Notes: generated from the letters alone by a model not told the origin. A stretch of 64,000 nt of DNA from Octopus vulgaris (GCA_951406725.2 OX597814.1:54374001-54438000); one strand, 5' to 3'. Positions 1,840 through 60,284 are shown, numbered from the stretch's first letter. A program made the numbers and translations.

Positions 1840-3118
1840 GAAGATACAGAACAGGGGGGGGGGCGAAACAAGGACAATATTACAGCGGGCTGGGGTTACA
1901 ACAATTTAAAATTTGGATGAAATCGGAATGAAAAATGCAATTTTAAATCGAAAATAAAAAATGCAATTCTAAATCCAAAATGAAAACCGCGATTAAAAAT
2001 ATAAATACAGAAATATATAGACCAAGAGTTCATTTTTAACCCGTCGGCTTTTTCCTTTTCTTTATTTCCTTTATTGTATTTTTTCTTTACTTTCTTTTCG
2101 TTTTGACCGGCTACACAAGCACGGCTCTGTTGATACTCAACTTCCTTTCCACAGTTTTCCATCTTTTTTCCGTACACACTCTGAGGCAGGTACCTTTTCT
2201 CCAGACGGATCTTTCTTAGCCGGTAGAAGTTAAAATAACTTACCAACCCGTGTCTGGAGATAAAGTGGCCTGTCTCAATCCCTTTCGCACGTGTCATCCA
2301 TACTGTATTTTTCAATATGGCTACTACGCAGAGAAAAGACGCCTTCCTTTCTTTGTTAAAGGAAGGAGGCGGTACTATCTTAACGATGGACTCAGTCGAG
2401 AGCCGTACTCTTTCTGCATCCGACATCAGTTGTTCGACATAGCTATCAACTCCCTCAGCTCCTCAGTGTACGGTGTGCGCGACTGTTTCACTGACGCGCC
2501 CGCACCTCGGGCATGTGGGGGAGGTGTCAAAACCGAGTCTGGACAACCTCTCTCGAACCGGTAAGGCCGACTGGTAGCACAACCAAGCCAAGGATTTCTG
2601 GAAGTTATCCAGATACCTCGGCCCGAATATCCTCCCGAACAGGCTGGTCAGTTGTCCCTCATTGAGGCCTAGAGTCTTTCCCAGGACGTCGTCGGACCCA
2701 TACTCTACCAACCTTCTATAAAAATCCGCAGTGGTAACCTCGCTGCCAGTATTGCTCGCTCGAGAGAACAGAGTGACTGCTTGTCCGGACTCTTTCTGCC
2801 ATTCTCCCATCCTAGGTCTCCGCTTGATCCATGTACCCAAGTCCCTGAGGGACTTCAATTGTGGAAGAATTTGCTTGACATGCGGTGACCACACCTGCTT
2901 ACCATCCAGGTAGCTCCAGAGATGTCTCAGCCTCAGCGTATACTTGCACATCATAAGCCAAGACATCTCCAGTCCACCCTTTAACGGTTTCTCGCAGCAG
3001 ATGGAGCGTTCACAAGTGACGTTTTCCCTGTTCACAAAAAGCGGAAAAGGATCCGTTCCAACTCGGTCAGCCACAAACCGGGGCAAGGCACGACGGAAAG
3101 CGACGATCTTCTTCACAA
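1840..3118 (-). mobile_element. 5'-truncated, frameshifted L1/Tx1-clade LINE (ORF2 C-terminus with zf-RVT, plus 3' UTR)
   Basis: ORFs 2463-3212 and 1896-2426 contain LAWLCYQSALPVRERL...SPTCPRCGRVSETVAHTVH and VWMTR, typical of the L1/Tx1 ORF2 zinc-knuckle region. Confidence 0.85.
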
Positions 3119-3539
3119 ACAAACAAACAAACAAAAACAAGTGCACCATAGTTTGACAACTATGGTACTCATGCCGTAATTTAGCCAGAAAACTTATCGA
3201 GAACATTTGCACAAATTTTTTATTAAAATATATTTGGTTTTTACTGGATTAGAGTTTTATTAAATTACGAAATATGTCCTCAAATTTGTCTCGCGCACTG
3301 TGTGTCTATGTCTGTGTACACATACATACATACATACATACATACATGATGTTTACAATTTTATAAATGCACCTTGTATCGAATACTTCCTCATGCAGTA
3401 TCGTTATCTGAATAACCACTCTTTATAACTGACCCTTACCCTCCCCAGGGACGGACCCGGGGGTGGTCAGGTGCCTCCACCCCCTCACGAAAAGAAGTGC
3501 GCCCTTCTAAATGTTATTACGCCCTTTTCTCCTGGAATT

Positions 3540-30060: not shown

Positions 30061-31439
30061 CGTTTGGATGCACAAACTGTACGATCATTCAATACTATTT
30101 GCATGTAGCTATTGATTTCTTCCATCCTAAGAATGTTGCAGTCACATTGGCAAGATTGTGGGTTTGATTGCGCGTTATTCTTCAGCAAAACACTCCTATT
30201 CACTCGGAGCGAATGTTGGCTCGCCTGCATGCGGGGTGGCATCAATTAGGGCTACAACACGAAGAAGCGCATTATGACCAGCGATATATGTTAAACATCC
30301 AACAGTCTATCCTATAGTGGTATGTGTGTGTGTGTGTTTAAGAGATAGAGCAAGCAAGACCGGGGTGGGGGGAGTGTATGCATCCATGAAACTTGAGTGA
30401 ATTGGAGCGTTAATTGCAACTAAACGAATAGAATGCTACTTTCGTTTGTTCACCTCGTGTGCGTGAGATATTTCAATGTGTTCAATGTTGCTTTACCTAA
30501 AACCAGCCGAAACGTGATGCCAACTCGGACAAGGCACTCTGTTGTTGGACCTGTAGTTACATTTCCTTCAAATCACACAATACTATCTTATAAATAAGAA
30601 AATAACCCAATGAATAATGCAGTCCTAGATAGCCCTGCTAGAATGCTTTCGATCAGGCATGAGCAACCTTTTTCAAGAAGAGGGGCACATGAGACATGTT
30701 GCACTATTAAAAAAATTCAAGCTTAATTTTCGTTAGGCATGTTATTCAGAAAGTACCGCAGGCCGCACTAGACTGTTTTACATTAAAGCTAACTGGAATA
30801 CTAATTTGTAAACACAATAGTTCCCTATCTTCGTCATGTTTTGCCACACGCCAGGATCCGCTGGCGATCTCAATCGACTTTTTCTTTCCTCTACTATGCT
30901 AAAAATTATTACCATGAGAATACTTCATTACTTTTGCTTTCACTATTTTCAACTCAAGTTTTTTAGTGCTTACTGATTATTATTATAAGGCTAATAGACA
31001 ATATTTATCAAATCTATCTTCAATTCGATAACTACCCATTGAGACTTTTTCTTAGATCAGCTGAAGTCTTTCTCCTCTGAGTTAGCTTCTTTTCTCTCTC
31101 TCTCTCTCTCTTTATTTTAGTGAAGTAAACTGATTATAAAGGAGAACACTATTCCAATGACAAAGAAAATCGTTTTCCATTACAAACGTACAGAATCGCT
31201 AAATGCTAAGCGGCAAATTTTTGTTTATGTTTGGAGTTCAAATTCCGCCGCGGTTGACTTTGGCTTTCATTCTTTCAGGGACGATAAAATAAATACCAGT
31301 TTAGCCCTGGAGTTCGATGTAATCGACTGTTTCCCCTCCCTCCAAAATTCCCGGCCTTGTGCCTATAGAAGAAAGAATTTGTTAAACGTTAGCTTATCTA
31401 TCTCTCGAGAACAGTTGCCATGGAAAAGTGAAGTAAAGT

Positions 31440-31525
31440 CACTGATAGGAAGTGACGTTACTAGTATTGGTACTACGCATGCGCACTGTCATACACAGCG
31501 ACGTGCCTTGTAATGGCGGGAAGTA
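31440..31525 (+). promoter_or_regulatory. Housekeeping-type TATA-less promoter, likely for PAGR1
   Basis: ETS/CRE-like GGAAGTGACGT (31448-31458), reverse CCAAT ATTGG (31466-31470), NRF1-like CGCATGCGCA (31476-31485), YY1/E2F-like AATGGCGGGAA (31512-31522); CpG-retaining region; strong donor AG|GTGAGT at 31582/31583. Confidence 0.7.
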
Positions 31526-31582
31526 GCATGTTTTCATGTAAAGTGAAGAAGTATTTCTCCTATTCATTGACAGATGCCATAG
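31513..31582 (+). CDS. PAGR1: Probable PAGR1 exon 1, coding part (MAGSSMFSCKVKKYFSYSLTDAI)
   Basis: ATG in AATGGCGG context and donor GTGAGT. Joining these 70 nt to the acceptor at 45389/45390 gives a stop-free frame continuous with ATG 45413. Could instead be 5' UTR. Confidence 0.55.
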
Positions 31583-45389: not shown

Positions 45390-45702
45390 CTAATTCCCCC
45401 AAATCTTCCCAGATGGTGAGGAAAATGAGTTCTCGTGTAGAGGACGAAGAAGACATTATTGATGTTGATGTGAGCGATGATGAGAAATACAATGCAAATA
45501 ATGTCTTCCAGGGCCTCTGGATCCCTTATCCGGATCAAGTTGCTGAAATGTTTGAGAAACTGGACAATGGTGGCTTACCAGTTCTTAAATGGAAATGTCC
45601 TGGTCGCAGGCCACCTGAGGTGGAGAAAGAGGATGAAGATATGGACATAGAACAGAAGTTAGTTGTGGAACAGAAAATAGAAGAACTCAAAGAGGAAAAA
45701 AA
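45390..45702 (+). CDS. PAGR1: PAGR1 (PAXIP1-associated glutamate-rich protein 1) exon 2; in-frame ATG at 45413
   Basis: Polypyrimidine tract plus TAG acceptor (45388-89) and donor AA|GTAAGC. DVDVSDDE...WIPYPDQVAEMFEKL...LKWKCPGRRPP and an E-rich stretch align with recalled human PAGR1 VPCSDEE...WMPPPSEIQRLYELL...PRRPP. Confidence 0.92.
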
Positions 45703-45958
45703 GTAAGCAAAATAGTTTTACTGCATGAATGTATGTGTGTGTTTGTAGGATCAGGTAAGTAGTTGTTGTTCAGCTCCAGGTCAGGCCTGATTATGTAGAC
45801 TTATGAGCAAAGGTTTTCCAACTGTGTCCATCCTCTCCTTTTCTTTTCCTCTTTTTAAGATGGGCATGTAACTTGAAGTAGATTTCCTAGTGCCAATGCT
45901 ATGTAAAAAGCATTGATACACTCTGTGAAGTGGTTGGCATTAGGAAATGTTCCAGCTG

Positions 45959-48270
45959 TTGAAACCATGCCAAAGCAGACATTGGAGCTTGGCACGATCC
46001 TCTGTCTTACCATCTCTTGCTAAATAATACAACCATGCCAGTATGGAAAACATGTTTAGTGGTGATGATGAGGATTTCTTATTTCTAAAAGCTTCTGTGA
46101 TTGTGTAAAGGTTCCTTCTCTGGCTGGCGTAGAGACTTCCTCATTGACTCTTTCTCAGATTAAGTTGGAGTAAATTCCAGAATGGTCTCATCTGGGAATT
46201 TATTCCTTACAACAATTGAAATTATCAAACTCTTCCAAGAACTCTCCTGCAGACTAATTGTCGTCAACACAGACAATCACTAGTTTCCTTGAATTTTAAA
46301 CTTTTGCTATTCAGTTGGTTGGTAGTGGACTTATGCCATGTCTTTTAAAATTTTATTTCACTTTATTTTTATTGTAAAATTAAATAGCATAGTGAGTTGG
46401 TAGAAGTGGTAAAACATTATAGTAAATGATTTTACAGTATTTATATGGCAGTCACAGTTATGGCTGTGGTTAAGTTTGCTTCATGCGACTTGATTTCACA
46501 TGTGATCCCAAATGCAGATGGCAGAACATCTTGTTGCTAAAGCCGACTGGTGAAAGTAACAGACATGTTTCACTGGTATTAGATCTCCTCAGCAAAGCAT
46601 CTTCAACTCTCTTTACAAAACTTTTGAGGAGATCAATATCTGTCTGTCTATCTGTGTATGTGTGTGTGTGGAACAAAGGGAATGTGGTATATAGTTTTGT
46701 TTATCTTCATTTTAGCTCCAAATCCTATGGAATTCTACTTCTGTCTCTGTGATCAAAGAAGTTCATCCATTTTCTTTATCACTATTCCTGGGAAGGATTA
46801 TGGTGGGTAGAGTCCTCTGACACATCCTCCTTAGGGTCCTGTCAGAAGCAACCATCATTGCACTTTACATTAAATAAGTGCCAATTGCATCAAATAAGTA
46901 CCAGTAGTTAATATACTAGAGATTGACTTGATCAATTATATATCTTCTTTGAAAATATTGGTTTTGTACATGACTGAAAGAACTCATGGGTTTGAACAAC
47001 AGGTACTATGAGGAGATTTAGTCAGTAAACAACTGGGAAAATTTATTGATAAAAAAATCAGTTTAGGAAAAGGCATTGGTTTTCTGTGTTTTAAAAAACA
47101 TACCTGAAAAACTAACTTGTGTGAGGGTAATCAACCAAGTGCATTTATCAAATATAAAATGAAGATAATAAATATGATAAATGTTGGTTTCAAATTTAGG
47201 TACAAGGCCACAATTTCAGTGGGTGCGGTACAGGGTAGTATCAAAAAGTTCCTGGACTAATTATGTTTAACAAAAAATAATTTATTTACCTAAGTTTTTG
47301 CATCATCTCCTTCAAAATAGTCACCTTGCACAGCAATACACTGGTCCCAGCTTTTCTGCCACTTTTGGAATCCAGCCTGGAAGCCATTTTCTGTAAGCGA
47401 ATCAAAGACCTTCTGCAATTTGCTCTAGATCTTGACAGTGGAGTTAAAACAGCGACCTTTGAGCTTCATTTTCATCTTGGGGAAAAGATGGAAGTCCACA
47501 GGTGCTAAATCTGGGGAATAGGGTGGGTGGAGAAGCAATACCATGTTGTTTTTGTGAGAAAAACTCACAAGTGAGAACTCGATGACAGGGTGTGTTGTTG
47601 TCATGAAGAATCCAATTTTTTGTGCTCCACAGATCCAGTTGCTTTCACTGAATGTCCTCAAACACTTCACAATGTTGTAGTAGAACTCTCAATTGAGGGT
47701 CTGGTCCTGGGGTGCGAATTCATGATGCACAATACCATGGATATCGAAAAAATGGTGAGCATGCTCTTGATTGAGCTGCAGCTCTATTATACCTTCATTT
47801 ATGGAGATGAAGGTCTCTTCCATTGTAACAACTGCTGCTTCATCTAACACAGGCCATCATCATCATCATTTAGCACCTGCTTTCTTTGTTGGCATGAGTT
47901 TGTCTTTCCAAATACCAACCACTCCAAAAGTGTAGTGGGTGCTTTTTATGCACCAGTTATGAAACACCGGCATTGGCTACAACATTGAAACCATGCCAAA
48001 GCAGACATTGGAGCTTGGCACGATCCTCTGTCTTACCATCTCTTGCTAAATCATACAACCATGCCAGTATGGAGAACATGTTTAGTGGTGATGATGAGGA
48101 TTTCTTATTTCTAAAAGCTTCTGTGATTGTGTAAAGGTTCCTTCACTGGCTGGCGTAGAGACTTCCTCATTGACTCTTTCTCAGATTAAGTTGAAGTAAA
48201 TTCCAGAATGGTCTCATCTGGGAATTTATTCCTTACAACAATTGAAATTATCAAACTCTTCCAAGAACTC
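45959..48270 (+). repeat. 286-bp direct duplication (45959-46244 and 47985-48270)
   Basis: Near-identical copies; 4 substitutions seen by eye. Confidence 0.95.
47231..47850 (-). mobile_element. Mariner transposon 3' part
   Basis: HPPYSPDLAPVDFHLFPKMKMKLKGRCF; TA-flanked TIR CAGGGTAGTATCAAAAAGTTCC at 47231. Confidence 0.9.
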
Positions 48271-49276
48271 ATGGTATGTTGCCAAAGGAGTCAGTAATTT
48301 GTCATTACCTCTGTGAGGCCCAAAGTTCGAAGGGTACTTTTTAGAGTACTCGAAGGGTACATCGGCACATGAAACTGGCAATGGTCACAACTACAATTTC
48401 ATTTGGTTTGACAGATGAAAAAATGGACATTGAAAATTGATGTTGATGATAATGGTTAGAATCTTCAGTCCACTTTAGGTGACAATGCTGTGCACATGTT
48501 GACCTACTTGTCAGGAATAGGTCATCTGGAATTATTATTTGAAATGGAATCCTCTTATATATACATGGAAGATATATTTATTATTTACTTAACTCTCTGA
48601 AAGTAGAGCTAAGCATTGGCTCTTGAATACATTTTGTAAATAATAAATAAATATTTTTTGTGCTACATGATATAATGACCAGAGAGGTCCCTGCTTTGTA
48701 AATAAAGTCTACACTAAGAAGCTGCTGCTAACAAACTGTTGTATAATGATGGAACATATTGTTTCCTCTCATTCTTTTCAGTACAATTTTGAAAGAAAAT
48801 GAAGGGGTTAAGCAAGTTTTACTCTTGATACTCATTAATTTATGTATCAAAATTGGCAATAATGTTTTTTTCCAAGATATTGTAACTTAGAATTGGATGT
48901 GATATTAGAAAGAAGAAACATTTTTTTTTACAAGGATGGAAACAATAGAACCATATTATTTCTATCTTTGCCTGGTAGGTTGTTTAAGTTGTTAGAGAAA
49001 TTGTTTTTTTTTCTTTTTTCCGTTGTCTTTTTTACAGCTGGATGCTTTTCCTTACTGTTAACCACACAACTGATATGAGTTGAACTGGAGCAAGCAGAGT
49101 TATGTACCTTGTTTAGGAATGCAGCTTAATGTAAAATTTTTTCTCATGTATAATTGCCAAACTAACAAAATAAATAAACATGGACATTTCTCAAATTTGC
49201 CATTGTTCGTTACTGAAGATGTAAAGAATATTTTCCTTAATAAAGGTTTTGTTTGCTTACTTTTTATTTTTTTCAG

Positions 49277-49359
49277 AGTGCCACAACCTACAGAATTTGA
49301 TTTTGATGATGGCAGCCTAGAGCAATCTACCACTAAACTAACTCCTAGAAAAACACCTG
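49277..49359 (+). CDS. PAGR1: PAGR1 exon 3 (83 bp)
   Basis: ttttttttcAG acceptor and G|GTATGT donor; phases match the flanking exons (2 in, 1 out); encodes VPQPTEFDFDD...RKTP, containing the PTEFDFDD signature of PAGR1. Confidence 0.95.
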
Positions 49360-49765
49360 GTATGTGTATATATATATGTCATTCCATTCTATTTAGTTGT
49401 TGAATATTTGCTGCAGTGGGAGAGATTCCCATATTGTTAGGCTTATTGTTAACATCTTATTTGATATTGGAGTGAAATATCCATTAAATGTTTAGATGAA
49501 ATTATGTATAATGTGCTGGTATCTGCTATAAATTTTTTTGTCATGTCTCTAGGCAGGACACTTTACCTCAGACATAGGCAACCTGCAGCCAGCAGGAATT
49601 TCTGAAAGCAATGTCTAACAAAATAATTACCTTGAATTTTTTTAGTAGTGAAGTCTGTCTGATGATGAGCTATTTCTCATGCAGTTCACTTCTTGAAACT
49701 GGTTATCCATGCATGCCTGCATTACATACATTAGTTCAATTAAATGTTAAGACTACATACTAGAT

Positions 49766-50078
49766 CAGGGCTAGCCAACCTGAGGCATGCAGCCCGCAGA
49801 CTTTTATATTGTGGCCCACTTGATACCTTCTTGAAATGAGTTTATTTAAGCATGCATTTAAAAATTTTATCAAAAATTAAAGATCGTAACGGAAAGTAAA
49901 AAAGGAAGATACTGTTTTTGCAATGATATGTCATGTTGAATCAACGATCATTCATTCAATATTGTAATAATAGCTTGAGAAAGCAAAATGCTTTCAATTT
50001 TGTCAGTATATAAGCGGCCCTCAAAAAACTTTCTGTGATTAAAGTGGTCCACAATGTAATTCAAGTTGGCCAGGCCTG
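49766..50078. mobile_element. hAT (Charlie-like) MITE
   Basis: TIRs CAGGGCTAGCCAACCT / AAGTTGGCCAGGCCTG and a perfect 8-bp TSD TACTAGAT (49758-49765 and 50079-50086). Confidence 0.9.
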
Positions 50079-51344
50079 TACTAGATCATATGAAGATATT
50101 CGATATGAAATAAAGGAAAGGTTACAGGAAATCACTTCATTGCTTAGGAGTCAATTTTAATTTGGTTGTTTAAGAAAATATATATTTATGTTGGTTGTTT
50201 TGGTAGTTTCATTCTTTAGCAGTCAAACTGACTGTATTGATTCTCTCTCTGTCACCACTAAGTCAGTGGGAAGATTTTTTTTTAAAGTAAAATTTTTGCC
50301 TAAGGCAGGCTATTTTACTTTTTCCATTGCATAAGCATATAAATAAAATCAGGTTATCATCCTCACCGTTATCATTGTTTAACATCTACTTTTCGATACT
50401 AGTATAGTGTGGACAAAATTTGTTGAGGCATATTTTTTACAGCTGAATGCCCTTCCTGTCGCCAACCCTCAGCTGTGATAGGTATCTTATTATCTGTTAT
50501 TGTCACATATAATGAACACCATGTTATGATAGGTTTCTTGAGTATTAGAAATTGATGTAATCCTCAGCTGCATATTATTAAAACTGTCACCACTGATAAC
50601 AGAGTTTTTGGCTTGCTTGTGCTATATTTCTGATAAATAAACTCTTAATTTTATTGAGGCTTTTGACCGTATAGTTGGTCCTTACAGGGAAAAGTAGATT
50701 TTTTTTTCTTGTAGAATATGAAGCACAGTGGCTGAGAAGTTAGTGTTGATCTTCTAACTACATGGCATGGTTCAAATCTTACTATTGTGTTCTTAACTAT
50801 GGTACATAACTCCTTGCTCTGGTTTCCCTGACTGCTAAAAATATACTTTTAACACTTAGCTAATATTTGTGGTTAGTAGTAGGAAAGACATCCAGATGGA
50901 AAAACAGTTTCAACAAATAAACTATTGCACCGTACTCGCATGGCATTATGGATCCAAAATAGCAGCAAAAAGAAAAATTTAAGTGAAGGTGTACAGTCTC
51001 AGCAATATAAATATAATGGTCTGGAAAGCAGATTATTAGCCAAATACTTTCAATATATGAAATGGTCTCACCTATCCTATGATCTCATTCTGTATTTAGT
51101 CATACTATGGTGGTTTTAGGATGTATTGTGACCATAAGAAAACTTTGATACGTAGTCTGTAAGGTTGGTGTGTTTAGTAGTGACAGAATAAACGGTTGTG
51201 GACATTGCTCAGAATTTGTTCAGTTTATTAGGTGGTGAGCATTCATCTCTGGAATATCTTGACAATAAAATAGACAAAAACAAATTGTATTATATTTTTG
51301 TTTTTATCATTTTCTCATGGGTATTTTTTTTCTTTTCAATCCAG

Positions 51345-54300
51345 GTTCATCAAAAGGCAAAAAGAGAGTTGCCAGAATGGATAAAGTGCTTGACGATCTT
51401 AATCGACAAAGGAAAGCCACTGAAGCTACAAAGGACCAGCGAAAGAAAGGTACCCCAAAGTCTGCTCGAGGATCAGCAGGTGGACGTTTTTTCTCATCAC
51501 CTCGAACGCCAATGTCTGCTGAAAAGTATGCGCCTTCTATAACACCACCAGGTACACCTCGATCTGTTGGAGCAAAGAGCTCACACAATCGTCTCTTGAG
51601 TTCTAAATACACTCCACCTTTACGTTCCACCTCCTCGTCTCCTCGTACATTATCCAGTCCCAAATCTCAAACTGGTCAGAGTGCAGAGAAAAATGCTGCA
51701 CAGACTACATCCACTGTTACTAAAGTTCCTCAAAGCACACTTCCAAGCGATGCTGAGTTCAATGCGACCGAAGTGACTCAAGCAGAATCAGTGGAAAGCC
51801 CCATCAAGACAAGTGGGTCATCCACTGGTTTGTCTATAGCCATGACCACTGCTGTCGTCAGCTCCTCGAAGTACACACCTCTAACCCAAGCTCTCATGAC
51901 TGAACCAATGGTAAGCTCTTACCCCTCTAATATAACTCTTTTTAATAAACCAAGGGTTTCTCTTCCACAAAATGTGCCACAATCACTATCTGGTACCACT
52001 ACAGCTAATGCTAGCTGTAACAGCACTACTACTACTACTACTTCTACTACTACTACTACCACCATTACTACTACCACCAGCACCACTTTGGCTCCTACTT
52101 CTCCTATTGGTGCACCTGCCAGCTCTCCTCTTTCTGCCACTGCACTTGCAGTATCTACTCAGGCTTCACACTTTGCCAGCAATACTCAACCAGCTCATTC
52201 GGTGGCAGGTATTTCACGATCTAGCATTTCCCTCTTCCCCCATCAGTCTGCCCAGGTTGCACAACAGCCTTCTGTGGTCAGAACAGCTCAATCCTATCTT
52301 GCTAATTCTCCTATGGCTCAACCTGTACAATCTCCTGCTCAGTCACCTTTGAACCAACATGCCCAATCACCAATGATGCATCCTGCCCACTCACCATTGA
52401 TCCAATCCGTACAGTCCCCTATGGCACAGCCTGTTCATTCACCCATGCCTCAACCTGTCCATTCACCTATGGCAAAACCTGTCCAGTCACCCATAGCTCA
52501 TCCTGTTATGTCTCCTATTGCCCAGTCACCTATCAGTCAAACTATTCACTCTCCAATGAGTCAACACACTCAGTCCCCTATGAGTCAGCACACACATTCT
52601 CCCATGACACAAATCTCAATGTCTCCTTTACAGCAGCCTGCTCTGTCCCCAATGAATCAACCTGTCCCGTCCCCTACTGCTGCCCAGTCTCCACTGTCTT
52701 CAGCTGCTCCATCACCTTTACAAACTGGTGCTCTGTCTCCAATTACACTCCAGTCCAATCCAATGGCTCAGACGGCTTCTGCACACCGGGTAGTCCAACA
52801 GAATCTACCCCAGACTGGTTTGATTACTAAACCCCGCCAGGCTGCTTCAGGCAAACCAAAGTTAAGTTCAGACAAATCTAAACATGTAGCCTCAGGTAAG
52901 CCAAGAGGTCCCCCAACTTCTCCATATGCTGCATCACCTGCAGCTAGTCAGCCTAGTTTTAGTTCTCTACAAGCCCAGCTTAGCCAGGGACTGCTGCAAC
53001 AGAAGGCTCAGTCTGCTCCACAGCAACTGTCTCAGGCTACTCAGCAGCAGATCAACCAGTTGCTTCAACAACAACAACAACAACAGCAGCAGCAACAACA
53101 ACAACAGCAGCAGCAACTACAACAGCAACAGCAGCAACAAAGATCCCAAGTGACATCACAACAAGTGATACAAGCTTCTCAGTTACAGGCTCAGACCTCA
53201 CTGGAACAGCAATTGCAGCAGCAGCAGCAATTACAGCAACAACAACAGCAGCAACAACAGCAGCAGCAGCAGTTGCAACAACAGCAGCAGCAACAGTTGA
53301 TACAAGCTTTAAGTCAACAAAATGTCAATCAACAACAGTTGAAACTTAGTTTAGCACAGCAGCAAATTTCGCAGCAACAGCAACAACAGCAGCATCAACA
53401 ACAACAGCAACAGCAATTACAGCAGCTACAACAACTGCAACAGCAACAACAATTGCAGCAACAGCTGCAACAACAACAGCTACAACAACAATTACAACAA
53501 CAACAGCAGCAGCAGCAGCAACAACAAACACCTCAAGTTGCTGGTCAGCAGGTGTCCGGTGTGCAGCAGTCGCAAAGTGTGATGCAGCAGCAGATAACCC
53601 AACAACTTACTCAGCTGATCAAACAACAGAAAACGCGACAGTTTGTCTCTCCGCAACGTGTTGCCCAGCAGCTTGCAAATCAAGCAGCATCTCAGAAGTT
53701 AGCACTACAACAGCAGCAACTGCAGCAGTTACAACAGCAGCAGCTGCAACAACAACAACAGATGCAGCAACAGCAGCTACAGCAACAACAGCAGCAGCAG
53801 TTGCAACAGCTTCAGCAGCTAGTTCTTCAACAACAACAGCAACAACAGCAGCAGCAGCAACAGCAGCAAGCTCAGATAGGAAACCAAACCCCAATAGGGC
53901 AAAGTTCACCCCAGTCTCAAGTAAGCCAGGCCTCTCCACAGTCAGTCCTTAGCCAACCCTCCCCACAAGCATCAGTAGGTCAAGCGTCTCCACAGACTCC
54001 ATCTAGTCAGGCTTCACCCCAGGCTGTCATTAGTCAATCATCTCCACAGGCCTTAATGGGTCAGACAATCTCCCAGCAAGCTGTTAGTCAGTCACCATCT
54101 CAGGAGCCCACTAGTAAGTTGCAGCTGAGTGCTGCAGCCTCGGTTCAGTTAGCAAAGCCAAGAGGAGCTCCTTCAGCTTTACAAGCAGCTTTGTCACAAA
54201 TGAACCGAGCCAGCCTTAGCCAGTATTTTCAGGCAGCCAAAGCCCGTGCAAACCAAGCAAATCACCCCCAGTTATTAAAATCCCTTTCTCTGACCACACA

Positions 54301-56470
54301 GGCTAACCAATTGCTTACATCTCAATCACAGCCAACTCAGTCTCCCACCACCCAAACTCTGTTTCACAACACTCAGATTCCTATCAGCTCAGCTCAAAAC
54401 ATTGCTCAGGTTAACGCTGCTACTCTTCACAATCAGTTATCTTCAAGAAGCCATGTTCCTTCAACTAATCCTTCTAATATTGCCCAATCACCTGTCACCT
54501 CTATATCACAGTCTCCTCCAGCTGGCACACAGCAATCTTCACTTCTGCGCAAGGATGATGTACTCACTGCACAAACTCTTGGAATTTCTCAAAATAAGAT
54601 TTCCTCACCAGATTACAAACTTTCCATTTTTACACAGGCCGCCACTCCACAAACAGGATCGTCAGGACCAATTTTGACCCGAAAGTCTTCTCTGAGCGGT
54701 AGCGAAGTAGATTTATCATCACAGGCAATTATGGAATTGAATGCAAACCAGTTAAGAAGTGTCGCTGTGTCTGGTCAATCTTCCAGTGGTGCCACCGCTA
54801 CAGCAACTTCACTCAGTCAAGGTGGTACTTTATTAACTCCACAAAGCAGAACTTTATCTCAGAACATACTGCAAACCAGTGGTGAAACTTCTGTTGCTCA
54901 GCAAGAGCGATTCACTCTAAGCTCTATGGTTCAGGGTGCTAACAATTTAACTAGCTCTAAACAAGTGCCTCATCAAAATGCATCTGAGGCAAATGAACCT
55001 TCGCCTTCAGCCACTCGGGAACGTTTGTCATTGTCATCTATGGTGCGATCATTTGACCTTAGTAGTCTGACACAACAAGAAAAGCAAACATTGTCATCTT
55101 TAATACAATCCAGAGAATTGTCATCACTTCAGAACCAAGAACGTTTTTCTCAACATTCAGAAGGAGACATCGTATCCCTTGCCCAACAGTACTCCAGTGT
55201 CCCAAAAGTCCAATCATCTGTTCCAGTGGGTTTCTCCCAATCCCATGCAGGGTCAATAGGAGATCCTGCTGTTACACAATCATATATGATGCCAAAGTCA
55301 GCAATAATTGGAAAGCCTCCTCCACCTTATTCAGTTGCTATTGCTGAGAAAGCACAAATGATTTTAACTTCCATCGCTGGACGAAAAGATGCCAATGCAA
55401 TAAGTCATCTTTCATCGGGTGTCGCTGATAAATCAAATGTAGCATTCGTTAAAGGGACTGAAATGTCATTGCCTTCATCCATTTCTTATAATTCTGGAGT
55501 TAATTGGAATACTTTACAAACTGTTTCAACTGATTCAGGAACTAATATTGTATCTAGTACACATACGATTACTACTCCACAGTCAGGTGTGAACTCTCTG
55601 GCAACCAACCAAATTTCACAACTTCTCCTCCAAAAGACACCAATGCAAACTGTGCAGCAATTTGATGCACAAAGAAAAGATGATAAACAAACGTTAGATT
55701 TAGTTAACACCTCTTTGTCTGCAGTTAGAGCTGCCATCTCTCAGTCTACCAGCAAAGAGAGTCCGTTAGTGCATAAAAAGGTATTAGGATTTTCTTCTGT
55801 GAAGAATTCAAGTAATGCCGTGAGTACACCTCAACAGTCAGATGTTGTCAACACTGTTGCGACCAATAACTCTTTACTGCAGCACATGCTAGTGTCTTCA
55901 GCAACAGAAGCTGCAACATCTGCATCAATACTCCCATCACTTCCCACCCAAGAACTTAATCTTCACAAGTTGTCTTTGAGTAGTGTTTCTCTTCCTAGCA
56001 GTACTGCCTTAACTCAGTCAACAAGCCACAGTTCTACTGCTGCCAGCCACATTTCAGCAGCAGCAGTATCAACATCAACAGCAACAACAACAGCACCCAC
56101 TCGTCCACGTCTAAACACTATTGCTGCTTTACTGAACATAGATTCAGGGCAGCGGACGCAAGCTGAATTACGGAAACTATCTTTGGCAGGTATCTCAGCA
56201 GATGGTTCCACGGGTATTTCAAATTTTGGACAAAGTTTAGGCATAGGTTCTGCTTCTAATTATTCTTCTGTTGTAACTACTGCTGGCAAAGCAATTACTT
56301 CTTTGAAACCTTTGACTATTGTAACTAGTAGTAATACTGTTGTTGCAGGTCATGCAGTCAAACCCCGACCTAAAATTGATGCTAATCAGTCAGTGGCCTT
56401 TTCAGAAAACACTTTTCAAAGTGATCAACAACAGCAACAATCTAGCAATGCTTCTGTTTCTGAATCTTAA
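51345..56470 (+). CDS. PAGR1: PAGR1 terminal exon (5126 coding nt): conserved C-terminal motif plus a ~1,680-aa low-complexity S/T/P/Q extension
   Basis: Acceptor ttcttttcaatccAG, phase 1. GSSKGKKRVARMDKVLDDLNRQRK aligns with recalled human GSS...KREARLDKVLSDMKRHKK. Open frame to TAA at 56468-56470. Confidence 0.92.
53040..53875 (+). repeat. Coding mixed CAA/CAG polyglutamine region
   Basis: Several long Q runs broken mainly by Leu, in frame within the terminal exon. Confidence 0.95.
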
Positions 56471-56608
56471 ATATTATTTCTCTTTTAAATGCAAATTTCT
56501 TTCTGTACAAAAAAGAAAAGAAAAAAATCAGAAAACAATGCAATTACAACAAAAATTGAGGAAGAAAGCTGTTTCTTAATATTTTTTTACTTTGTCTTGA
56601 CCAATTGA

Positions 56609-56721
56609 AATAAAATTGTTTGATCTGTGAAATTGAAAGGAAACAACATTGTATGTCAAGTATGAAATGAAATTCTGAGAAACTAGATGAACTTTTAAGT
56701 GTTAGAATCTCTTTGAATAAA
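56609..56721 (+). terminator. Candidate polyadenylation signals for PAGR1
   Basis: AATAAA at 56609-56614 and 56716-56721, 140-250 nt after the stop; the AT-rich context makes chance matches likely. Confidence 0.4.
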
Positions 56722-59782: not shown

Positions 59783-60284
59783 TACATTATTTACATTCAA
59801 CGGATATTTGTCCTCATCTTGTTTGTTGTTAACACAACGTTTCGGCTGATATACCCTCCAGCCTTCTTCAGGTGTCTTAGGAAAATTTCGAACCTGGGTT
59901 CTCATTCCTAAGGTATTTTTCAATGTTATTATTATTATTGTTAGTGTTCAGGTCACTACTTGGAATCAAACACAGAATCTTGGGGATAGTAGCCTGAGCT
60001 CTTAACCACTACGCCATATGTGGGCATATGGTATAGTGGTTAAGAGCACGGCCTACTAACCCCAAGATTCCGAGTTCAATTCCAAGCAGTGACCTGAACA
60101 CTAACAATAATAACATCGTAAAATACCTTAGGAATGAGAACCCAAGTTTGAAATTTCCCCAAGACACCCGAAGAAGGCTGGAGGGTGTATCAGCTGAAAC
60201 GTGTTAACAACAAACAAGATGAAGACAAATATCCGTTGAATGTAAATAATGTACATAATTCCTCATCTCTTAAATATAGAACTG
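59783..60284. mobile_element. Palindromic tRNA-headed, hammerhead-bearing non-autonomous retroelement (Penelope-type)
   Basis: Arms 59783-60020 and 60025-60253 are reverse complements around TGGG. Each arm has a tRNA-like head followed by a hammerhead motif; the right arm has an extra ~30-nt tail. Confidence 0.85.
59831..59876 (-). ncRNA. Minimal type I hammerhead ribozyme
   Basis: GACAC-CUGAAGA-A-GGCUG(GAGGGUAUAU)CAGCC-GAAA-CG-UU-GUGUU: 5-bp stem I, intact core with one extra A, 5-bp stem II, palindromic AACGUU stem III. Confidence 0.75.

Follow-up and report, generated by a model that had tools for sequence, protein, structure and literature searches.

Octopus vulgaris PAGR1 carries a long C-terminal tail common to octopus and cuttlefish, with a candidate exitron spanning its Q-rich middle

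Introduction

A 64,000-nucleotide (nt) stretch of the Octopus vulgaris genome (GCA_951406725.2, OX597814.1:54374001-54438000; the window hereafter) contains a gene that a first-pass annotation, made from the sequence alone, took for a homologue of PAGR1, a small partner of PTIP, extended by a disordered tail of about 1,680 amino acids (aa) in a single exon. Does the locus encode such a protein, is the tail anything more than a frame left open by chance, and what could a tail of this size do on a small adaptor of chromatin complexes? Judged by its sequence, the gene does encode a member of the PAGR1 family, and a tail of about 1,500-1,700 residues is common to the octopus and cuttlefish sequences compared here. 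By analogy with known coactivators, we consider it somewhat better than an even chance that this tail makes the small PTIP partner a multivalent transcription scaffold, the Q-rich middle of which may be removable by splicing. Beyond the first-pass annotation, the analysis adds a candidate in-frame exitron, islands of conserved motifs within the tail and an upstream exon.

The gene and its PAGR1 core

Three exons with GT-AG borders (45413-45702, 49277-49359 and 51345-56470) join into a frame of 1,832 aa whose only stop is at its end, and the phase-compatible three-exon structure originally proposed is thus upheld. Two Octopus vulgaris proteins at NCBI match exon 1 with 100% identity, and the O. 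vulgaris model P0001 agrees with the window protein over all 923 residues. The PF15364 family (PAXIP1_C) scores 31.9 bits on exon 1 alone, 85.3 bits on P0001, whose core is identical to that of the window protein, and 88.5 bits on the cuttlefish sequence P0003 described below, the gathering cut-off being 27; profile positions 4-73, 78-103 and 105-130 map to exons 1, 2 and 3 in order. The match ends at about residue 151, which is position 51424, the very point where PAGR1 similarity had been said to stop. The first 100 residues are Glu-rich (16 E and 11 D), and an FDFDD motif occupies aa 104-108, an FDF-type motif being present in 100 of the 150 family representatives surveyed below. In a tree of the cores (27 rows; Haliotis was dropped because it had no anchor), octopus and the cuttlefish cluster form a clade at 100/100, sited among mollusc PAGR1s. 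The family score, the FDFDD motif, the Glu-rich core and the placement on the tree all agree with the original assignment to PAGR1. Human PAGR1 (PA1) has the full family domain, the Glu-rich core and FDFDD in common with the octopus protein, but it is reported to be 254 aa long with an LxxLL motif at 115-119 (PMC9219552), whereas the octopus protein has 1,832 aa and no exact LxxLL, a motif that is not known to mark the whole family. In a sequence search of the PDB for PAGR1 relatives no entry came below E 0.23; the faint MCM3 matches lie over MCM3's own DF-type motif.

The start of the gene is less firm than its body. The ATG at 45413 is present, but an upstream exon (31513-31582) splices in frame to 45390 and would give a protein of 1,863 aa, 31 aa longer; because this exon keeps the frame, the protein start is uncertain. 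Before the upstream exon, at 31400-31520 and 13.8 kb ahead of the start first assigned, stands a cluster of housekeeping-promoter-like words (ETS-, NRF1-, YY1- and RFX-like).

A tail common to octopus and cuttlefish

In the last exon the reading frame runs through about 1,708 codons without a stop and the other five frames carry 78-133 stops each; with stops as frequent as in the background of the window, the chance of such an open frame is about 1e-42. The codons of the polyglutamine (polyQ) region are mixed (170 CAA and 166 CAG, the longest run of one codon being 6), and none of the dispersed repeats of the window overlaps the last exon.

The tail also occurs in the P0003 cluster, which has nine members (Logan; 12 contigs, the longest of 6.6-7.1 kb) and includes a Sepia pharaonis record. 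Six of the nine, 1,665-1,673 aa long, begin at exon 1, cross both junctions and share the C-terminus; the remaining three are one annotated record and two sequences that start inside intron 2. Four further Logan proteins (P0007, P0011, P0014 and P0022) end or begin at the same intron positions, from which we infer that the joined forms of the cluster come from spliced sequence. P0003 itself has 1,673 aa, and a third, cuttlefish-like copy, P0004 from ENA, has 1,535 aa. The octopus tail is 42% identical to that of P0003, with the modules in identical order, and the three cephalopod sequences have 15 invariant runs of at least 6 aa in the tail. Every part of the tail except polyQ clearly beats all 30 local shuffles when aligned to cuttlefish; for polyQ the score is 407 and that of the best shuffle 400, and the least conserved part is the SQ region (27% three-way). 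In 166 other proteins, nearly all of them PAGR1 matches, no tail part found a match.

Since six spliced cuttlefish-cluster proteins carry the tail at 42% identity and in the same order, we regard it as a real, conserved feature of coleoids and not as a repeat artefact. The argument of the first-pass annotation that so long an open frame implies selection is sustained by the improbability of the frame and by the alignment of all tail parts except polyQ above shuffles. An open frame arising by chance from microsatellite or transposon sequence was considered as well and is ruled out by the mixed Q codons, the closed state of the other frames, the lack of dispersed repeats and the orthologous tail of cuttlefish.

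Two wider searches contributed nothing to this result. When sequencing runs were searched with 51345-56700, 19 of the 24 rows contained 0.85-0.98 of the words, and none is on record as RNA, 14 being guessed to be RNA; the search is given no weight. Two metagenome scans for cephalopod DNA gave 274 and 531 pattern matches, 0 of which were confirmed. P0009 and P0012 each lack, relative to P0003, one 8-residue Ser-Pro (SP) unit at different sites, which may be repeat-number variation or assembly collapse.

Anatomy of the tail

All modules that had been listed for the tail, namely the basic TP/SP region, poly-T, the SP array, polyQ, the SQ repeats and PPxY, were located in the last exon (Table 1). 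The units of the SP array are spaced by 8 residues in 16 of 19 intervals, and a KPR linker sits between the array and the Q/L region. AlphaFold2 predicts helices in the Q/L region at aa 684-850, 867-889 and 894-969 with a predicted local distance difference test (pLDDT) of about 50-80, and most of the tail falls below pLDDT 50. The description of the tail as disordered is therefore correct for most of its length but not throughout, given the predicted helices at aa 684-969 and 1361-1387. The final residues, about 610 of them, are dotted with invariant islands.

S/TP pairs are enriched in the octopus tail (56 versus 33 in local shuffles, P<0.001) and in all three cephalopod tails (P 0.001 or less). 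For S/TQ pairs the octopus tail shows no enrichment (55 versus 52 in local shuffles, P 0.32), though the other two tails, which are decapodiform-like, do (P 0.001 and 0.009). The tail contains no Pfam family that passes E 0.1, with no match at all in aa 1223-1832, and an Atlas search with the tail gave one sub-threshold lead at 0.81 (an ARID2 fragment) and was otherwise blank.

A candidate exitron

The models of O. vulgaris (923 and 954 aa) and of O. bimaculoides (956 aa) all omit 51911-54637. The claim that the tail lies in one exon accordingly holds as far as the continuity of the frame goes, but with this stretch spliced out of the database models the full-length product is perhaps not the sole form. 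The omitted stretch begins with GT at 51911, ends with AG at 54637, has no stop and is a multiple of 3 in length, and it is 36-39% identical to the stretch that is kept in the spliced cuttlefish sequence. Being open and that similar to what cuttlefish keeps, 51911-54637 is not an ordinary intron. Scored with matrices of rough frequencies, a roughness that itself counts against the case, the donor ranks 2 of the 239 GT sites of the exon and first in phase 0, and the acceptor ranks 3 of 397 AG sites; the observed scores are reached in 8% (donor) and 2% (acceptor) of synonymous codon draws. The donor lies within EPMVSS, an invariant 6/6 window of a kind found at 2.8% of tail positions, and the acceptor ends DYKLSIFTQA, an invariant 10/10 window (0.66% of tail positions) with nine residues inside the skipped part. 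Invariant peptides at both splice sites are what dual coding would leave. We tentatively propose, at rather less than even chance, that a conserved exitron removes the SP array and polyQ to give a form of 923 aa.

Exitrons that remove intrinsically disordered regions have been described in plants (PMC4484396) and are reported to recur across vertebrates (10.64898/2026.10.06.756961). Like such examples as TARDBP, the octopus candidate is in frame, stop-free and bordered by GT-AG, and it lies in a long coding exon over a disordered Q-rich region; it differs from known exitrons in its length of 2.7 kb and in being indicated by gene models and conserved border peptides.

Several further points weigh against the exitron. 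The middle is present in all nine members of the cuttlefish cluster, among which no short form of around 931 aa occurs; the spliced-out form is known from gene models, and those of the two octopuses may have come by the skip in a related way. These strong in-phase sites are also the ones that a gene finder would settle on if it passed over masked repeats. DNA that encodes hydrophobic islands is rich in pyrimidines, and 3 of the top 20 acceptors fall in 10/10 islands. Finally, the border windows were chosen after seeing the data.

An exact look-up of the last-exon open reading frame from two start codons found it absent from the protein collection. The strongest donor-like site of the last exon, at 52896 in phase 1, is unused by the models and lies outside the conserved islands. 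An AATAAA occurs within the coding exon at 51944-51949, 33 nt past the candidate donor, where it encodes N-K of FNKPR, which is three-way invariant.

PAGR1 tails in other molluscs

For a survey of the family, a profile of five lophotrochozoan cores was used; 340 representatives were found and the best 150 examined, of which 110 reach the core end and were measured and 40, with matches short of the core end, were dropped. Nautilus is not represented in this sample. The median tail of the 110 is 32 aa; 10 exceed 200 aa, the longest besides octopus has 477 aa, and only the shortened octopus model lies above 500. Elsewhere, long tails are found in heterobranch snails (306-443 aa) and in unionid mussels (about 500 aa), and tails of about 100 aa in Mytilus, Saccostrea, Pinctada, Patella and Capitella. 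All of these are S/T/P-rich with 2-6% Q, the S+T+P share being 29-46% in the heterobranch and unionid tails; the coleoid tail is three times the next longest and the sole Q-rich one among the 22 longest examined. The heterobranch and unionid PAGR1s resemble the octopus protein in having a low-complexity C-terminal tail that opens with a basic SP/TP stretch, but their tails, of 270-500 aa (290-500 aa in P0017, P0018, P0038, P0043, P0044, P0050 and P0056), are Q-poor and have no detectable similarity to that of coleoids.

Because coleoids, heterobranch snails and unionid mussels form separate clades on the core tree, molluscan PAGR1 tails grew more than once, and because molluscs commonly have S/T/P tails of 100-500 aa, that of octopus stands at the far end of a trend seen repeatedly. 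The possibility that long tails are general in invertebrate PAGR1 was rejected, as 0 of the 110 exceed 1,000 aa; a reservation is that the octopus entry is itself shortened and that other annotations may hide tails too. The extension can be called lineage-specific in the sense that this form of it is restricted; it is not an octopus novelty, being common to cuttlefish, and shorter tails are frequent in molluscs.

Lineage-specific Q-rich growth is common in coactivators, the PTIP of flies included, the Q tracts of which are reported to change length (PMC3055267), and the surprise is limited for this reason. Octopus PAGR1 is raised above a routine case by its conserved islands, by the residues that the database models omit and by the possible exitron. 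A literature search for PAGR1 with octopus found no paper, and among the matches listed for cephalopods neither PAXIP1-associated nor exitron was met, subscription papers and supplements lying outside the reach of both. The PAGR1 family is thus known and this architecture was not found described, which does not establish its absence from print.

Other features of the locus

Table 1. Features of the octopus PAGR1 gene, in window coordinates.
Feature	Position	Strand	Remarks
Probable first exon and promoter region	31400..31582	+	ATG 31513, donor GT 31583; encodes N-terminus of NCBI model P0002
Exon with ATG 45413 and acidic N-terminal PAGR1 core (SDDEKY, W-x-P, helix, WKCPGR)	45390..45702	+	PF15364 4-73; helix aa 40-51
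Exon carrying FDFDD cohesin-binding-type motif	49277..49359	+	Motif aa 104-108, 49296-49310
Terminal exon, 5,126 nt, with core end and entire tail	51345..56470	+	Spliced cuttlefish-cluster proteins read through
PAGR1 core end (KKRVARMDKVL helix, aa 126-151)	51345..51424	+	PF15364 105-130; helix aa 136-159, pLDDT 85-95
Basic S/T-P segment, aa 152-313, bearing CDK-type sites and retained by both isoform models	51425..51910	+	56% identical to P0003; blastp E 1e-28 or better
Candidate exitron, 2,727 nt, 909 codons, in frame, GT-AG	51911..54637	+	Holds poly-T, SP array, polyQ and SQ repeats
Poly-Thr (ACT repeat)	52025..52074	+	Shorter in cuttlefish
SP array, about 20 Ser-Pro units	52304..52740	+	24-nt tandem repeats; cuttlefish match E 1e-27 with low-complexity filter on
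Q/L-rich region, 55-65% Q, about 285 aa	53021..53878	+	Resembles cuttlefish mainly by composition
9-residue SQ/SPQ repeats	53933..54051	+	27-nt period, 4.4 copies
Invariant 10-aa island DYKLSIFTQA	54611..54640	+	DNA is pyrimidine tract and acceptor of candidate exitron; three-way alignment
Amphipathic helical island aa 1361-1387, candidate folding-on-binding element	55052..55132	+	pLDDT 80-90; invariant QQEKQTLS
Longest invariant island, 16 aa, bearing sole PPxY WW-ligand motif	55307..55354	+	Three-way alignment
Invariant hydrophobic islands DLVNTSLSAVR, NNSLLQHML, IAALLNIDS; LxxLL-like, not exact LxxLL	55676..56146	+	Alignment
Two AATAAA signals, 139 and 246 nt past stop	56609..56721	+	Candidate polyadenylation signals, sequence scan

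On the minus strand of an intron, at 47260-47850, lies a decayed, mariner-like transposase fragment with a YSPDLAP motif; it is flanked by a direct duplication of 286 bp (45959-46244 and 47985-48270, 98.6% identical). Downstream of the gene, at 59783-60253, there is an imperfect palindrome of 470 bp with an opposite-strand self-match of 87%, similar to a miniature inverted-repeat transposable element or a foldback element. At 1896-3248 on the minus strand, two adjoining open frames are found, the second of which ends in a CPRC...H motif that resembles the zinc finger after the reverse transcriptases of long interspersed nuclear elements.

Possible roles of the tail

In the mechanism that we favour, the PAGR1 core would bind the N-terminal BRCT pair of PTIP and, through FDFDD, cohesin, as in mammals, where BRCT1-2 of PTIP is reported to bind PA1 at 7 nM (PMC4719306) and the FDF motif of PAGR1 to be required for cohesin occupancy in human cells (PMC10570055). 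The Q/L helices would help the protein to self-associate and to join condensates at enhancers or promoters, in the manner of the polyQ of KMT2D, and the basic S/TP segment together with the 8-mer SP array would offer proline-directed kinase sites that tune this clustering. The invariant islands of the last 600 residues may be docking motifs, the PPxY being suited to a WW protein such as Yorkie/YAP, as in NCOA6. Splicing of the conserved 2,727-nt exitron would give a 923-aa form that keeps the core and the docking motifs and loses the SP array and polyQ.

Two members of the same complexes make a role as coactivator or condensate scaffold plausible by analogy. NCOA6 carries LxxLL boxes and an NCOA6 family domain. 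As a subunit of the Trr/KMT2C-D complex, it is, like the octopus protein, a long low-complexity member, and its PPxY, a motif present in the octopus tail too, is reported to bind the WW domains of Yorkie (PMC4118621). Its PPxY motifs number three in the fly and two in human, whereas the octopus tail has one, invariant in the three cephalopod sequences; the octopus tail lacks an exact LxxLL and has no Pfam family in common with NCOA6, the likeness being one of working and not of demonstrated homology. The polyQ of KMT2D (MLL4) is reported to support condensates (PMC13584762), and its prion-like domain combines leucine-interspersed polyQ with predicted helices in a disordered region, as the modelled octopus tail does. 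The octopus Q/L region, of about 285 aa, sits on the PTIP adaptor instead, and unlike in KMT2D/MLL4 its condensate formation is only predicted.

Against the scaffold stand several observations. There are 0 exact LxxLL motifs in the 1,832 aa; a lone PPxY occurs in about 10% of local shuffles (P about 0.1), and IxxLL counts in the tail are at chance level. Neither PPxY nor IxxLL being rare by composition, only their conservation argues for them. The long form is known as spliced sequence from the cuttlefish cluster only, with an RNA origin deduced from the joined exons. Moreover, two other mollusc groups gained tails of 270-500 aa that have no sequence in common, and tail growth may therefore be easily tolerated.

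The alternative that fares best, though we think it unlikely, is that the tail is no scaffold at all but a handle for controlling the abundance or timing of PAGR1/PTIP, with PPxY as a degron for a WW ligase of the NEDD4 family, the SP sites as a phospho-timer and the Q region as a spacer. PPxY motifs also bind WW domains of the NEDD4 family; S/TP enrichment in all three tails, a polyQ conserved by composition only and the growth of unrelated tails in other molluscs agree with such a handle, as does the reported stabilisation of PTIP by PAGR1 (PMC10570055). A degron, however, needs less than what is preserved here, that is, at least 8 invariant islands besides PPxY, one of them a confident predicted helix, and the Q content and module order are kept in both lineages.

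A scaffold of another kind, for DNA damage, is improbable in our view. It would have ATM/ATR phosphorylate the S/TQ sites and tandem BRCT domains such as those of PTIP bind them, so that the complex clusters at breaks. The 55 S/TQ pairs, the 9-mer SQ repeat and the S/TQ enrichment of the two decapodiform-like tails are in its favour, and binding between PTIP and 53BP1 is reported to be ATM-dependent (PMC4719306), but the octopus S/TQ pairs are unenriched and lie partly in an SQ region that is the least conserved of all. A cluster of ATM sites as the main role of the octopus tail was rejected on the same shuffle result.

That the tail is a captured or fused copy of another complex member, such as NCOA6 or the Q-rich region of PTIP, which coleoids then lost elsewhere, seems very improbable. 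The Q/S/P-rich composition with PPxY does recall NCOA6, and PTIP is reported to have a Q region (PMC4719306), with tracts that vary in flies (PMC3055267). No Pfam family and nothing beyond the ARID2 lead was recovered from the tail, however; it grades, with no internal intron, out of a basic SP segment present in all molluscs, and local repeats account for its bulk.

The octopus and cuttlefish lineages split about 270 million years ago. We give hardly any credence to the idea that the database models are right for octopus, with 51911-54637 always spliced out and a sole protein of 923-954 aa, since a true intron would not hold its frame since that split, and this one holds 909 stop-free codons similar to the cuttlefish-retained stretch (the SP array at E 1e-27), even though the models of both octopus species skip it at canonical in-phase sites and the collection searched has no long octopus protein.

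The multivalent scaffold thus being our preferred reading, it can be carried further, with only a small chance, we think, of being right in full: an exitron that has persisted since octopus and cuttlefish parted, with splice sites that serve as invariant protein motifs as well, would toggle a condensate module of 900 residues comprising the SP array and polyQ, and the PPxY in both forms would connect the PTIP-cohesin arm with Yorkie and so do part of the work of NCOA6.

Implications

Coleoids are known for their rearranged genomes and large brains. Most PAGR1 proteins are tiny adaptors that act through PTIP to control the cohesin on chromatin, and a conserved extension of 1,500-1,700 aa, confined to coleoids as far as sampled, is a concrete change in their enhancer and cohesin machinery. 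Defined handles are offered by its single PPxY, its helix, the SP array, the polyQ and the pair of splice sites. The public models of two octopuses lack 909 residues, over half of the tail, and proteomics and evolutionary screens that use them would therefore miss the polyQ. The exitron, should it prove real, would mean that splicing has long served to take out a condensate module in an invertebrate lineage.

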